Shown here piece after piece: positions 470 to 5,047 of a stretch of 64,000 bases of DNA. Both the position numbers and the translations under genes were made by a program. The notes under the pieces were generated by a model, which was given only the letters and a program-made list of their open reading frames with translations, made no database searches and was not told the DNA's origin. The stretch's first letter is position 1; every line of letters starts with the position of its first letter. Source of the stretch: an uncultured Desulfospira sp. (lineage in GTDB: Bacteria > Desulfobacterota > Desulfobacteria > Desulfobacterales > Desulfobacteraceae); contig OY760175.1 of assembly GCA_963663165.1 (NCBI GenBank), positions 2,240,001 through 2,304,000 of the forward strand, in the 5' to 3' direction.

Positions 470-497
470 TTGACATCAATTTACGTTCTATTATAGT
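470..497 (+). promoter_or_regulatory. Putative sigma70 promoter of the kinase operon
   Basis: TTGACA(470-475)-16 nt-TATAGT(492-497). Confidence 0.5.
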
Positions 498-614: not shown

Positions 615-1481
615 ATGGTTATGCAAAAGCTCAAGGACAAGGGATTCACACTTAAAAAATTTCTGGTATGCATTGCCGTCTGGTTTGCCGTCTGCCTGAT
701 CCTTCATTTTATTGTCCAGACAATGGAGCGGCGCAAACAAAAAGAACTTGTCACCACCGGCATTGCCATGTCAAAGGATATTTCCAGCCAGTCCGGGCTC
801 GCGCTGCTTGAAAAAAAATATGACCATTTAAGCCGGCTCATCAAGGACATTACCCAGCGGCCGGGGGTGGTGTTTGCGTCCATCATTGACCATAAAAACA
901 AACTCATTGCCTATTCCGACCAGAAACAGTTTTTTTCTTTAAACCGGGAAAATGCCCGCCGTGAAAGCGGCATTGAATACTGGCGGGCTTTTGGCCGGGA
1001 AACCCACAATGTAATAAATTTTCTAACACCAATTACCTTTTCCAATACACCGATCGGTGAGGTATTTCTTTCTTTTGCCGTAGAAAGTTATGACGGGTTC
1101 CATCGGGTCTTTCTGCTGTTTTCCGTACTCAGCCTGTTGGGGGTGTGTGGTGTGTTTGGCCTGGCCAATTACCGGCAGGTGATGGCCCGCCTGCAAAAAA
1201 AAGATTCCCTGCCTATTGAGAAACCGGCCGATTTGCCTTATGACAGTACTATAGATGATGCCGCATGGTTTACCTGTCCTTTATGCAGCGCAAAGAAACC
1301 GTTTTCAAGTGAGACCTGTAAAGGTGCCCCGCCTGAGTCAATGGTCATTCTGGATCGGTATGCCGGCCCGGAAAACCATATGATGCTGTGCGATCTGGAC
1401 GAAATTGAGGATCTGAGTTGGATAAAAAAACAAATCATCACCCGATGTACCCGGATTATTTCAGCGATTACCGCCCAGTAA
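615..1481 (+). CDS. Two-TM membrane protein with periplasmic Cache/PDC-like sensor domain and Cys-containing cytoplasmic tail
   Basis: Hydrophobic TM segments near aa 15-34 and 165-185; sensor motif ALLEK...VFASIIDH..LIAYSD...IGEV; CPLC in tail; GAAGGA RBS. Confidence 0.75.
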   Translation: MVMQKLKDKGFTLKKFLVCIAVWFAVCLILHFIVQTMERRKQKELVTTGIAMSKDISSQSGLALLEKKYDHLSRLIKDITQRPGVVFASIIDHKNKLIAYSDQKQFFSLNRENARRESGIEYWRAFGRETHNVINFLTPITFSNTPIGEVFLSFAVESYDGFHRVFLLFSVLSLLGVCGVFGLANYRQVMARLQKKDSLPIEKPADLPYDSTIDDAAWFTCPLCSAKKPFSSETCKGAPPESMVILDRYAGPENHMMLCDLDEIEDLSWIKKQIITRCTRIISAITAQ

Positions 1482-1511
1482 TGAAGTGTTTGTAACAACG
1501 GGAGAATCCTT

Positions 1512-3125
1512 ATGGCCGAAAACGATAATACTACAGATCAAACCGTTACCCTTTCCAAAGCCATGGCAACCGGGGTCTCGCTAACCATATCAAGGGTTGT
1601 CAAGAGCAATAAATTTGTGACCCGGAGTCTTAAGCCGGTCATTGCCTTTGGCATCCTCTTTTTGCTGATCGGGGTTTCCTGTCATTTCTTCCTGATAAAT
1701 GCCCAGGAATCCAAAAAACAGGCGGTTTATGATTCCGGCGTTCTTTCGGCCAATACCATGGCTGAAAAAATCAACGCGGCGCTGCTGGAAAAAGATATCC
1801 TTACCCTCAATGTGGCTGTGGGAGAGCTGGAAAAAAAGAATCAGACGGTTTTTGCGGCCACTCTTGACCACACCGGTAAAATCATTGTCCACAGCGATCC
1901 TGACGAAATGGGAAAACTTTACACGCCCCCGGAAACCATCAAGCAAATCGGCGTGGAAGAGGCGGTTGCCATCAGTCGTATGACCGCCGGCGGCAAGAAC
2001 ATTTTGTGCTTTTCAAAAGATCTTTTCTACTCAAAGGTAATGATCGGAAAGATCATATTTGGAATTGATGCCGCTGATTTAGACCGGGCCGTGGCCGGAT
2101 GCAAGCGGCTGATCCTCATTATCTGGGGGGCCTGTGTCATCTTGTTTCTCGCGGCCGCTGTCATAACGGACAATTATTTGAAAAAGAAACGGCAGCGTGA
2201 GCTTGAAGCCCTTGAAAAAGTCCGGCAGGTCGGCCCTTACAAGCTGATGAAAAAAATCGCCCAGGGCGGCATGGCCGAACTCTACCTTGCCGAATATGAA
2301 AGAGAGGACGGGTTTAAACGAACGGTGGCCGTTAAGAAAATCCTGCCCCATCTGGTGGAAAACAAGGATTTTGTGGACATGTTCATCAGGGAAGCCCGGC
2401 TCGCCGCCCTTCTTCAGCACCCGAACATCGTTCAGATTTATGATTTACTTAAACTGCACAATGCCAATTTCATGGCCATGGAATATGTGTCCGGCAGGAA
2501 TCTGGCTGAAGTGCTGTCCCATGAAAAGAAAGGGCTAGGGGTGGGCATGGCCACCTTTATCATCCAGAAAATCAGCCTTGGGCTCTATTATTCCCACACA
2601 CGGGTTAACGACGATACCGGGGCACCCCTCAATATTGTTCACCGGGATGTCAGCCCCCAGAACATGCTTATTTCTTTTAAGGGAGAGGTTAAAATAAGCG
2701 ATTTCGGTATTTCCAAAGCCCAGTCCGAACCCAGCCTCACCCAGGCGGGTGTCATTAAAGGCAAGCTGTCTTACCTGGCACCGGAACAGGCCTTGGGAAA
2801 AGAAGCCGGCCATCAGTCGGATCTGTATGCCTTAGGGATTATTTTCTACGAGGTACTGTCCGGTAAAAGACTGTATAAATTTGAAAATGAGCTTGACGCC
2901 TTGAGCAACCTGCCCAAAATAGAGATAGCGCCCATCAATACGATTCGAACGGATATCCCCAATCAGCTCAACGATATTGTTATGAAGTGCCTTGAAAAAG
3001 ATGTCAACTTACGGTACCGCTCGGGCAAGGAAATCTATGATGACCTGGCCAGTCTTAGAAAACGGTTGAACATCACCTTTGATGAAACTGATTTAAGTGA
3101 TTTTATGGCCAAGAGATTTAAATAA
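1512..3125 (+). CDS. Membrane Hanks-type Ser/Thr protein kinase with N-terminal periplasmic sensor domain
   Basis: IAQGGMA, VAVKK, FIREAR, HPNIV, HRDVSPQN, DFG, YLAPEQ, SDLYALG; two TM segments before the kinase domain. Confidence 0.95.
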   Translation: MAENDNTTDQTVTLSKAMATGVSLTISRVVKSNKFVTRSLKPVIAFGILFLLIGVSCHFFLINAQESKKQAVYDSGVLSANTMAEKINAALLEKDILTLNVAVGELEKKNQTVFAATLDHTGKIIVHSDPDEMGKLYTPPETIKQIGVEEAVAISRMTAGGKNILCFSKDLFYSKVMIGKIIFGIDAADLDRAVAGCKRLILIIWGACVILFLAAAVITDNYLKKKRQRELEALEKVRQVGPYKLMKKIAQGGMAELYLAEYEREDGFKRTVAVKKILPHLVENKDFVDMFIREARLAALLQHPNIVQIYDLLKLHNANFMAMEYVSGRNLAEVLSHEKKGLGVGMATFIIQKISLGLYYSHTRVNDDTGAPLNIVHRDVSPQNMLISFKGEVKISDFGISKAQSEPSLTQAGVIKGKLSYLAPEQALGKEAGHQSDLYALGIIFYEVLSGKRLYKFENELDALSNLPKIEIAPINTIRTDIPNQLNDIVMKCLEKDVNLRYRSGKEIYDDLASLRKRLNITFDETDLSDFMAKRFK

Positions 3126-3126
3126 A

Positions 3127-3852
3127 ATGAGCAATTATATCTTTGCCGGGAAAACCGACCAGGGGCTGAAAAGAAAAAAAAATGAAGATACCATTCTGAT
3201 CAATCAGGCCCTGGGCTTTGGCCTTGTTGCCGACGGAATCGGCGGGGCAAGCTGCGGTGACGTTGCCAGCAGCATGTTTGCCGGCACGGCCCAGTGGGTG
3301 TTTACCGAGGCCAAAAACTCAAATGAGCCCCGGTACGCCACCATCCAGCGCGTTTTTCTAACCGCCAATGAGCAGATCCTGGGGTATGCGGCCAAAGATC
3401 CGGGCAGAGAGGGGATGGGATGCACTGCCGAGCTGTTTGCCATTGATGAAGACCGGTATGTTTTAGGCCACATGGGAGACAGCCGGACCTACCGCTTAAG
3501 GGATAAGGAATTAACCCAGCTGACAAAAGACCACTCCCTGGTTCAAGAGCAGCTTGACCAGAACCTGATCAAACCCGAGGACATCAGCACCCATACCCTG
3601 AAAAATGTGATCTTGCGGGCAGTGGGTATCAAAAAAGAGCCGGCCATAGACGTCATCAGGGGGAACCTTCGCCCCGGCGATATATTCCTGCTGTGTTCCG
3701 ACGGCCTGACCGATCTGGTGGACCCAAAGACCATTTCAAGATACCTGGTTTCTGATTCGCCATTGCCCGAAAAGGCGGAGCTTCTGGTTCAAGAGGCCAA
3801 TACCAGGGGAGGCAAGGATAATATCTCCGTGGTCCTGATTCAGATTCTTTAG
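3127..3852 (+). CDS. PP2C/PPM family Ser/Thr phosphatase (Stp1/PppA-like)
   Basis: TDQGLKRKKNED, VADGIGG, MGCT, HMGDSR, TKDHS, LCSDGL, GGKDNIS; ATG at 3127 just after the kinase stop. Confidence 0.95.
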   Translation: MSNYIFAGKTDQGLKRKKNEDTILINQALGFGLVADGIGGASCGDVASSMFAGTAQWVFTEAKNSNEPRYATIQRVFLTANEQILGYAAKDPGREGMGCTAELFAIDEDRYVLGHMGDSRTYRLRDKELTQLTKDHSLVQEQLDQNLIKPEDISTHTLKNVILRAVGIKKEPAIDVIRGNLRPGDIFLLCSDGLTDLVDPKTISRYLVSDSPLPEKAELLVQEANTRGGKDNISVVLIQIL

Positions 3853-3872
3853 ACAGGGGCTTGAAAGTGTTA

Positions 3873-3896
3873 GGGCGATTCATGAATCGCCCCTAC
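3873..3896 (-). repeat. GTAG-type REP
   Basis: Minus strand GTAG-GGGCGATTCATGAATCGCCC, perfect palindrome after the GTAG tetranucleotide. Confidence 0.75.
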
Positions 3897-4152
3897 AACC
3901 GCCCCAACGACACCGCAAATCCGGTCTCCGGCCTCCATTTTTTACAGTATCAAATTGACCGGCAGGGAACATACCCATGGGTGGCGGCCCTGCAACGCGC
4001 CCCCCTGCCGGATGCCGTTCTGATTCCAACCGTGCAATTTTCGTAACTGCGGCTGTATTTTTCGTAACCGGGAACTCTTTTATTATATGGTGCTGGCTGT
4101 CCTGATTCGTTGGAACAGCCTGCTGTCAATGGTTTTCAGATATTTTTATGAC

Positions 4153-4169
4153 CTGGTATGCAAATTGCT
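4153..4169 (+). promoter_or_regulatory. Putative sigma54 (-24/-12) promoter
   Basis: CTGGTATGCAAATTGCT: GG-N10-GC; upstream direct repeat TTTTCGTAAC (4038, 4059) as possible activator site. Confidence 0.6.
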
Positions 4170-4180
4170 TTTCAAAAAGC

Positions 4181-5047
4181 ATGAAACTACCAAATCATCT
4201 ATCCAAATCGTTGTTGTCTTGTCTGCCGGCAACCCTTAGAAAACGGATCATCCGTACCGGCCTGCCCGCCTTCCAAACCAGCCTGAACGGCATCACTTTC
4301 CGCCAGGCATCGGGTATTGAGGATTATATCAGCTGCTTTAAGCTGCTTCATGATGTTTATGTGGCCGCCGGGTTTACAAAGCCGTCTTCTATCCCCTTGC
4401 GAATTATCCCCCACCACGCTGATCCTGAATCCAGGGTTTTCTTAGGGTGTACCGCCCTCAGTCAGACCGAGAATACACCCATTTATACGGCCAGCCTGTT
4501 CCCGGATAATCAACAGGGCCTTCCGATGGATATGGGATTTAAACGGCAGGTGGATCAGTTAAGGAACCAGGGGCGCAGGCTTGTGGAAGTCGGCTGTCTG
4601 GCCTCACACCCGTTATACCGGAAAGGGAATAAAAATATTCCCATGCTCGGCAACCGCCTGATCGTGTCCTATGCGGCCAGCACCCTCCATGCCGATGACC
4701 TGCTGATAACGGTTCACCCCAAATATTTAAACATCTACGAAGATATTCTGCTGTTTGAGAAAATCGGCCGGATTTCTTCCTATTCCTATGTAAACCATAA
4801 CCCGGCCGTGGCCCTCCGGCTCAATTTAAACACGGTGGCCCAGCGATTTAAACAGGTTTATGCCCAAAGGCCCGGGCATAAGAATCTCTACCACTTCTTT
4901 TTTGAGGCCGAATCCACCTCCATTGACCTGCCCCGGGAAGAGGAAAAAACAGGGGGAAAACGGCACTATGGGGCGGATATGATCGACCGTGTGATTCGCG
5001 CATATTCAGCCGCCCGGCCGACCAATGGCGGCATGGTCCCAGCCTGA
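4181..5047 (+). CDS. FeeM-like N-acyl amino acid synthase (GNAT fold)
   Basis: FKLLHDVYVAAGF, D..GLPMD..F, LR.QGRRLVEVG.LA, DDLLITVHPK, Y..IL.F, NPAV.L.L; start 4181 preferred over 4148. Confidence 0.75.
   Translation: MKLPNHLSKSLLSCLPATLRKRIIRTGLPAFQTSLNGITFRQASGIEDYISCFKLLHDVYVAAGFTKPSSIPLRIIPHHADPESRVFLGCTALSQTENTPIYTASLFPDNQQGLPMDMGFKRQVDQLRNQGRRLVEVGCLASHPLYRKGNKNIPMLGNRLIVSYAASTLHADDLLITVHPKYLNIYEDILLFEKIGRISSYSYVNHNPAVALRLNLNTVAQRFKQVYAQRPGHKNLYHFFFEAESTSIDLPREEEKTGGKRHYGADMIDRVIRAYSAARPTNGGMVPA

Follow-up and report, generated by a model that had tools for sequence, protein, structure and literature searches.

A receptor kinase locus with divergent lipoprotein genes

The 64,000-nt window analysed here (positions 2,240,001 to 2,304,000 of the forward strand of contig OY760175.1, from assembly GCA_963663165.1 of an uncultured Desulfospira sp.) begins with three co-directional genes, which encode a kinase-less membrane protein (ORF615, an open reading frame named after its first position), a receptor Ser/Thr kinase and a PP2C-type phosphatase. 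A sequence-only reading of the window had put this trio forward as a candidate self-contained three-part signalling system. Comparison with related loci did not support this: two lipoprotein genes lying immediately to the left of the window, and transcribed divergently from the trio, are more constant partners of the kinase than either ORF615 or PP2C. The features concerned are as follows (G000:C1 denotes contig coordinates in this genome; TM, transmembrane segment).

1 to 469, no strand: intergenic region between divergent genes, carrying repeat elements found genome-wide, the lipoprotein genes lying just left of the window
470 to 497, plus strand: sigma-70-like promoter site, TTGACA-16 nt-TATAGT, 11/12 consensus match
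615 to 1481, plus strand: ORF615, 288 aa; TM (16-34), single Cache domain, TM (165-183), cytoplasmic tail of about 100 aa with CxxC...C
1512 to 3125, plus strand: receptor Ser/Thr kinase, 537 aa; short cytoplasmic N-terminal tail, TM (44-62), single Cache-like sensor, TM (200-218)
3127 to 3852, plus strand: PP2C/Stp1-type Ser/Thr phosphatase, ATG at 3127, 241 aa
G000:C1:2238844-2239851, minus strand: LysM-CE4 deacetylase gene, 335 aa, predicted lipoprotein
G000:C1:2237481-2238836, minus strand: TPR-LysM-TPR gene, 451 aa, predicted lipoprotein

The three reading frames and the transmembrane-sensor-transmembrane architecture claimed for the two membrane proteins were confirmed, hydropathy giving each protein two TM segments around a loop of 125-140 aa, and the four peptides quoted in support of that claim were found in the translations of ORF615 and the kinase. 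ORF615 scores above the Pfam cut-off for sCache_4 (24.3 bits; cut-off 22.1), and 15 of the 47 members of its family match a Cache profile at E<=0.01. The kinase sensor matches sCache_3_2 at 19.2 bits, below the cut-off of 28.4, and members of the same sensor family on cyclase receptors (see below) reach 42-43 bits. Behind the sensor, with no HAMP domain between them, kinase residues 243-502 form a Hanks kinase domain (Pfam Pkinase, 142 bits) in which the motif set of VAxK Lys, alpha-C Glu, HRD, Asn, DFG and APE Glu is complete. Residues K275, E294, H377-R378-D379, N384, D397, G399 and E425 are each kept in 52/52 orthologues, and on this invariance a pseudokinase was rejected. At one further locus (L106:5964-7611) the kinase is split into two frames.

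The phosphatase exceeds the cut-off for Pfam PP2C_2 (43.8 bits), falls short of the curated cut-off of the Stp1/IreP model NF033484 (221.8 bits; cut-off 230) and belongs to a family in which the five metal-site motifs are kept in 37/38 orthologues. Its ATG at 3127 follows the kinase TAA, which ends at 3125, after a single nucleotide as had been claimed, and its translation is likely to be coupled to that of the kinase. A GTG start at 3097 was rejected, the orthologues examined being mostly 241-242 aa long.

The constant unit and its exchangeable outputs

The deacetylase combines a LysM-like N-terminus with a CE4 deacetylase domain of PgaB/IcaB topology, and its best sequence matches in the PDB are enzymes of that topology (E 1.6e-41 to 9e-21). 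The catalytic and metal-binding residues H112, D169, D170, H224, H228 and R311 are all kept in 91/94 homologues, a count that is partly circular for H112, as the pattern used in the deacetylase scan included the PILxYH motif. Some deacetylases (L032 and L090) have lost catalytic motifs. Pfam detects LysM in 72/88 TPR proteins, the TPR protein of this genome has a weak NCBIfam LysM match (E 5e-5), and the deacetylase N-terminus matches the LysM region of the TPR protein at 97.3%.

The distribution of these genes was followed in a sample of 301 genomes of the order Desulfobacterales. The kinase alignment was matched in 39 of these; four in which the match covered the kinase domain only were dropped, leaving 35 in which it includes the sensor. 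The deacetylase is present in 30 of the 35, and in 25 of these within about 5 kb of the kinase; overall, it was matched in 78/301 genomes. A search starting from the deacetylase gave 80 best loci, i.e. its closest matches, and 74 of them carry a receptor of the same sensor family, which is a kinase in 54, a Cache-HAMP-class III cyclase in 19 and a Cache-HAMP-SpoIIE protein in one. The other six comprise four loci cut off by a contig edge, one with a fragment of a cyclase and one that is receptor-less. TPR-LysM is the next gene after the deacetylase in 75/75 loci with room for it. In a separate phylum-wide sample of 301 genomes the TPR-LysM gene was found in 18, and the lipoprotein pair was adjacent in 14 of the 17 neighbourhoods retrieved, the receptor being a cyclase in 11 of these and a hybrid histidine kinase in one. 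One Cache sensor family is therefore joined to four outputs (Ser/Thr kinase, class III cyclase, SpoIIE phosphatase and histidine kinase), the SpoIIE and histidine-kinase sensors nesting within the cyclase sensors in trees. In the kinase form the lipoprotein pair is transcribed divergently from the receptor; in the cyclase forms receptor, deacetylase and TPR-LysM genes run head to tail, often overlapping.

The constant unit thus consists of the sensor family and the two lipoproteins, with a variable output, and ORF615 and PP2C are add-ons of the kinase form. After omission of 5 of the 54 kinase loci with less than 1 kb beyond the kinase, 49 had room for PP2C; it was found in 37, and in 36 of these it directly follows the kinase on the same strand, which bears out the description of a dedicated phosphatase. 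Named homologues occur in Desulfospira, Desulfobacter and Desulfobacula, which makes a sulfate reducer of the Desulfobacteraceae the likely host, and cultured carriers among the named matches are Desulfospira joergensenii, Desulfobacter curvatus and Desulfosarcina widdelii. Some cyclase-type receptors (L031, L032, L116, L124, L126) have an N-terminal stretch that we take to resemble the c-di-GMP-binding MshEN motif; the pattern was found in 3/30, and by eye in L031 and L032.

ORF615 is a one-way accessory of the kinase

The periplasmic domains of ORF615 and the kinase had been aligned by eye. Their relationship is confirmed by BLASTP (22% over 201 aa, E 3e-10), by a Smith-Waterman score of 107 for the periplasmic parts against a mean of 27 and a maximum of 65 in 1000 shuffles, and by profile-profile comparison with hhalign (99.8%, E 1.7e-28, 171 columns), and on these alignments the two Cache sensors are homologous. 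Sensor trees were built from 130 sensor sequences and four outgroups from this genome, reduced to 86 and then 47 rows; the divergent kinase sensor of L117 was excluded from both, and two long branches from the second. ORF615 and kinase sensors form two separate clades placed together. Support for this sister grouping is weak (94 in the quick tree, 86/72 in the careful one), and alternatives to it stand statistically (p-AU 0.15 and 0.12). ORF615 may have arisen from the kinase sensor by direct duplication, the favoured origin.

In place of a kinase domain ORF615 has a cysteine-containing tail, as had been noted, with C221 and C224 kept in 45/47 and C278 in 46/47 orthologues at a mean column identity of 33%. 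Neither Pfam nor the PDB gave an above-threshold match to the tail, and a PDB sequence search with the ORF615 profile gave nothing under E 0.1. ORF615 as a truncated or frameshifted kinase was rejected on its own clade (100/99), its conserved tail and its ratio of nonsynonymous to synonymous substitution rates (dN/dS) of 0.24.

ORF615 was matched in 28 genomes of the order sample, and after removal of four cross-hits to other sensors 24 remained, with the gene directly upstream of the kinase and on the same strand in 24/24; this constancy indicates that ORF615 depends on the kinase. The reverse does not hold. ORF615 is absent from 11 of the 35 kinase genomes (some of which are fragmented assemblies), which makes an obligate co-receptor role unlikely, and from 8 of the 54 kinase loci of the deacetylase-first search (46 have it); it lies beside none of the 19 cyclase receptors. 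An obligate ORF615-kinase heterodimer was rejected, since the kinase often occurs without ORF615. Conservation of the trio as a whole, which the sequence-only reading had made a test of its proposal, was thus borne out in part: the full trio is present in 31/49 loci with room and ORF615 is always beside a kinase, but the kinase is not always accompanied by ORF615.

Linkage to type VI secretion, and its absence here

The trio had also been suspected of regulating a secretion system encoded outside the window, in the manner of PpkA and PppA in a type VI secretion system (T6SS). In relatives the genetic link was borne out. A gene for an FHA-domain protein occurs in 35/54 kinase loci versus 0/19 cyclase loci (24/32 versus 0/5 among long loci). 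It is of the dual-FHA type in 21, FHA-cyclase in nine and FHA-GAF-SpoIIE in three; the FHA-class III cyclase gene follows PP2C (L072, L085, L091, L097, L098, L103, L105-L107), and the FHA-GAF-SpoIIE gene replaces PP2C (L094, L102, L110). A T6SS lies beside the module in 4/5 close relatives, with F4 and tssK 31-61 kb from the kinase, and in four loci of genomes G053, G289 and G303 the kinase leads straight into an F4-F5-tssJ-tssK-tssL-tssM operon. In genome G621 a complete T6SS occupies 26.4 kb between F5 and TPR-LysM, in the order F4, F5, tssJKLM, tagF, tssA, B, C, E, F, G, clpV, ..., vgrG, hcp, dual-FHA, TPR-LysM, deacetylase, ORF615, kinase, PP2C. In this genome the locus lacks the cognate T6SS, and the queries used did not find it at any other site. 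F4 and F5, which open T6SS operons in relatives, are retained next to the lipoprotein genes (together at L001:12642-15425).

G000:C1:2234642-2236690, facing the lipoprotein genes: F4, 682 aa, T6SS-associated
G000:C1:2236709-2237425, facing the lipoprotein genes: F5, 238 aa, weak T6SS_FHA_C match (E 4e-4)

F4 has no family match, and a search of the ESM Atlas returned only matches under 0.9, to be read as leads only. It contains several Cys clusters and an acidic tail with three E-T-I/V-V/I-L/I repeats, which recur in L022 and L027. F4 is a candidate kinase substrate and F5 a candidate split Fha C-terminus. F5 adjoins TPR-LysM in this genome (a gap of 55 nt), in G001 and in a second genus (L037), so that here about 26 kb, from tssJ to the dual-FHA gene, is missing between the two genes. 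Loss by deletion is a simpler reading than gain by insertion elsewhere, because F4-F5 lead the tss operon in other genomes.

No FHA gene was found in this locus, the four FHA matches of the genome lying at 5.70 and 6.61 Mb. The only complete T6SS in the genome is divergent (6.58-6.61 Mb, G000:C1:6581027-6608180) and has its own PP2C, a kinase-first PpkA-like gene and two FHA genes. There are in addition an orphan TssB-TssC fusion gene (G000:C1:3304277-3305767) and an orphan hcp gene (G000:C1:3228472-3228990); the fusion type adjoins the module in L042, L057, L063, L120 and L128. In G053, mlaE/mlaF-type ABC genes stand directly after the cognate T6SS cluster (L133:7230-9272).

Across the order sample, TssC was found in 19/35 kinase genomes (one by a weak match only) versus 70/266 others (Fisher p 0.0013, a value overstated since related genomes are not independent). 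The link between module and T6SS is real and not obligatory; a role as obligate T6SS regulator was rejected, as 16/35 kinase genomes lack TssC.

The short locus of this genome is under selection. Compared with G001, which has the same short locus, at dS of about 0.2, dN/dS was 0.09 for the kinase, 0.09 for PP2C, 0.16 for the deacetylase, 0.19 for the TPR protein and 0.24 for ORF615, against 0.07-0.24 for six neighbouring control genes; F4 and F5 gave 0.32 and 0.42. The five module genes are thus under purifying selection, and because their values fall within the control range this selection is likely to have continued after the T6SS went. Since the module is still conserved though the T6SS is absent, it likely has a further job here.

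Comparison with known signalling systems

Threonine-phosphorylation pathways acting on T6SSs are described for Pseudomonas aeruginosa (TagQRST-PpkA-PppA-Fha1), Serratia (RtkS-PpkA) and Acidovorax (TssW-PpkA-Fha) in the texts of PMC13713981, PMC12607579 and PMC10482370. The module resembles them in its membrane Hanks kinase, its PP2C and its envelope lipoprotein or periplasmic accessory genes, and tagF is present in its cognate clusters; an FHA gene accompanies it in 35/54 kinase loci and not here, and the kinase stands at a T6SS cluster in relatives, and neither at this genome's locus nor in six genomes of genus g47. In PpkA an N-terminal kinase is followed by one TM and a C-terminal periplasmic part, and the kinase of this genome's other T6SS is likewise kinase-first, whereas in the module kinase the two-TM Cache sensor occupies the N-terminus and the kinase domain the C-terminus. 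Its accessory proteins are of LysM, CE4 and TPR type, joined by a kinase-less sensor relative, and its input pair is used by cyclase, SpoIIE and histidine-kinase outputs as well and is kept where a cognate T6SS is missing. In Pfam and NCBIfam the two lipoproteins match only CE4, LysM and TPR families; no direct search with Tag proteins was made. The module works like these pathways but falls outside them on kinase topology and input proteins.

Relay from a lipoprotein to a receptor has precedents in TagQ/TagR-PpkA (PMC13713981) and in YfiBNR, which is also described as modular in its outputs (PMC3375315). In common with YfiBNR, the module places a PAS/Cache-like periplasmic sensor between two TMs, takes its proposed input from an envelope lipoprotein and exchanges its cytoplasmic outputs; both sensors are also weak matches to the NCBIfam YfiN model (E 0.043 and 0.065). 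Unlike it, the kinase form lacks HAMP and has a Pkinase output instead of GGDEF. No Pfam or NCBIfam match to YfiR or to a Pal-domain YfiB was found among the module proteins, and no GGDEF-bearing receptor of the sensor family was identified in the 80 and 17 loci, GGDEF not having been searched directly. The two systems share logic and not parts.

An N-terminal Cache-like sensor feeding a C-terminal kinase had been put forward as unusual. The architecture is as claimed; fusions of this kind, rare as they are, have already been published (PMC4822843, Table 1; PMC8915833), and in 2012 data sCache_3_2 is fused to a kinase in 2 of 2499 cases and DUF2222 in none of 713. Like Cache-superfamily receptors, ORF615 has a single Cache domain between two TMs, and the kinase a Cache-like one; a precedent for ORF615 is SMP_2, described as a free-standing sensor separated from its output (PMC4822843). 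The module differs in that an output-less ORF615 with a Cys tail stands beside a kinase of its own sensor family, and only 1/47 ORF615 members touches SMP_2 (E 0.002).

CE4 deacetylases of the NodB2 (PgaB/IcaB-topology) type include PDB 6DQ3 and BA0330/BC0361 (PMC10967932, PMC8807736). The module deacetylase resembles them in its lipobox and conserved catalytic residues, and differs in its N-terminal LysM-like domain, in scores under the PgaB and IcaB cut-offs and in being tied, in the loci examined, to a receptor gene rather than a polysaccharide synthase. A likeness to plant RLK/RLP pairs, in which a receptor kinase acts with a kinase-less receptor-like partner and LysM-based glycan sensing is a theme, is one of analogy only, extending to the receptor kinase with its kinase-less relative and to the LysM theme. 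The module has a two-TM Cache sensor, LysM domains on separate lipoproteins and a structured cytoplasmic tail in ORF615.

No literature on the lipoprotein-kinase module was found in the works covered, mainly open-access main texts. New in the present data are a sensor-first kinase with the one-way accessory ORF615, three alternative FHA readers and a T6SS-less locus under selection. Activating signals have been established for few T6SS kinases, and the inputs described so far (TagQRST, RtkS, TssW) bear no relation to the module genes. The module offers a different, glycan-directed candidate input together with a rare sensor-first kinase and an output-less sensor relative, and its natural variants differ in the presence of a T6SS, in the presence of ORF615, in output (four types) and in FHA reader (three types). 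Because the deacetylase is matched in more than a quarter of the order genomes sampled, the module may be a common, undescribed route of envelope signalling in sulfate reducers.

A proposed envelope switch and its alternatives

We read the module, as the best account of the data, as an envelope switch similar to PpkA/PppA, with unrelated input parts, an inverted kinase and a modular logic like that of YfiBNR. A slight balance of probability favours the trio being the inner-membrane part of a five-gene module whose lipoproteins relay the state of the cell wall to the Cache domain of the kinase. The LysM lipoproteins would bind or edit an N-acetylated envelope glycan and may then contact the Cache domains and pass on the state of the wall, switching the kinase, possibly through dimerisation. 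Contact, signal, dimerisation and substrate are all proposed by analogy with TagQ/TagR-PpkA and YfiBNR. ORF615 would tune the kinase as a dispensable accessory partner or a competitor. Phosphothreonine made by the kinase would be read by an FHA protein, the dual-FHA protein where a T6SS is present and FHA-cyclase or FHA-GAF-SpoIIE in other lineages, and PP2C would remove the marks and reset the switch. The targets remaining in this genome are likely F4, with E-T-x-x-I/L/V repeats in its acidic tail, or the other T6SS in trans.

Several observations count against this proposal. The substrate of the deacetylase need not be peptidoglycan, its nearest solved relatives being enzymes of PgaB/IcaB topology; Pfam detects LysM in only 8/94 deacetylases and in neither lipoprotein of this genome; and the lipoprotein assignments were made from a visible lipobox and conserved Cys without a predictor, a reservation to be set beside the circularity noted for H112. 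The deacetylase is also unmatched in 5/35 kinase genomes, including G303 with its kinase-headed T6SS operons, and the T6SS link is not general, the six g47 kinase genomes being without TssC. A broader version is tentative and rather doubtful: the module would be a portable 'cell-wall antenna' of Desulfobacterota, in which the lipoproteins read the state of peptidoglycan and one Cache family feeds four outputs. In Desulfobacterales it would have become an inverted form of PpkA, paired with a kinase-less co-receptor, as a counterpart in bacteria to LysM receptor-kinase signalling; this form would fire the T6SS when the wall is damaged and, where the weapon was lost, would have been rewired to other phosphothreonine readers (FHA-cyclase, FHA-SpoIIE or F4).

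The lipoproteins might instead be outputs, the receptor sensing something else and controlling a wall- or exopolysaccharide-editing deacetylase with its scaffold, for instance in opening the wall for T6SS assembly or protecting it against effectors of rivals. The active site kept intact in 91/94 deacetylases fits a working enzyme, and the divergent transcription of the pair in the kinase form also speaks for such a role. We nevertheless think it unlikely, given the head-to-tail, often overlapping genes of the cyclase form and a constant sensor family with four swapped outputs, a pattern more in keeping with a common input than with a common target. Homology of the sensors, the position of ORF615 beside kinases and never beside cyclase receptors, the joint placement of the two clades in the best trees and a published amino-acid-binding Cache-kinase fusion (PMC8915833) would all suit a self-contained receptor/co-receptor heterodimer with its own phosphatase, binding a small ligand directly in its Cache pockets. 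This arrangement is quite unlikely: ORF615 is missing from many kinase genomes and loci and is less constant than the lipoprotein pair, and the sister grouping is weak.

Another possibility is that ORF615 works chiefly through its Cys tail, responding to metal or redox state as an adaptor or serving as a kinase substrate, with its Cache domain doing no more than anchor it to the same periplasmic complex. The CxxC pair and the third Cys are among its best-kept residues despite the low column identity. Yet the three conserved Cys are one fewer than in a classic zinc site, the tail has no above-threshold match, and in 2/46 orthologues the protein is shortened, L040 stopping at 241 aa, ahead of the tail, and L049 (243 aa) having no match to it, so that we hold this role to be improbable. 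That the module is here a decaying relic of T6SS loss is very improbable indeed. The cognate tss and dual-FHA genes are absent, and orphan hcp and tssB-tssC fusion genes lie elsewhere, but none of the five frames is broken, the promoter site survives, dN/dS is in the low range of the neighbouring controls and the same short arrangement is found in a second genus.

Promoter region and flanking elements

The sigma-70-like promoter site at 470 to 497 likely drives ORF615, kinase and PP2C. It was the one site found (1.2 are expected by chance at the looser threshold of 9 of 12), and TTGACA occurs at a similar place ahead of ORF615 in 7/7 relatives compared. A TTGAC-N21-GTCAA inverted pair overlaps the site in L036, L042, L043 and L057. 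Between promoter site and ORF615, a 20-nt tandem repeat at 544-583, single-copy in the genome, is a possible operator; its core, GGTACCTGTC, is doubled in L035 too. Repeats resembling repetitive extragenic palindromes, along with palindromes, lie at 122-179, 333-369 and 3868-3897, with about 153, 56 and 32 matches in the genome, respectively. PP2C is followed by a gene for a FeeM-type N-acyl amino acid synthase (4148-5047, Pfam E 6e-35), which among clustered loci is found elsewhere only in G001. In L045, L046, L054, L092 and L101, PP2C is followed by genes for another kinase, which has a PEGA domain, and for a thioredoxin-like/TPR protein.

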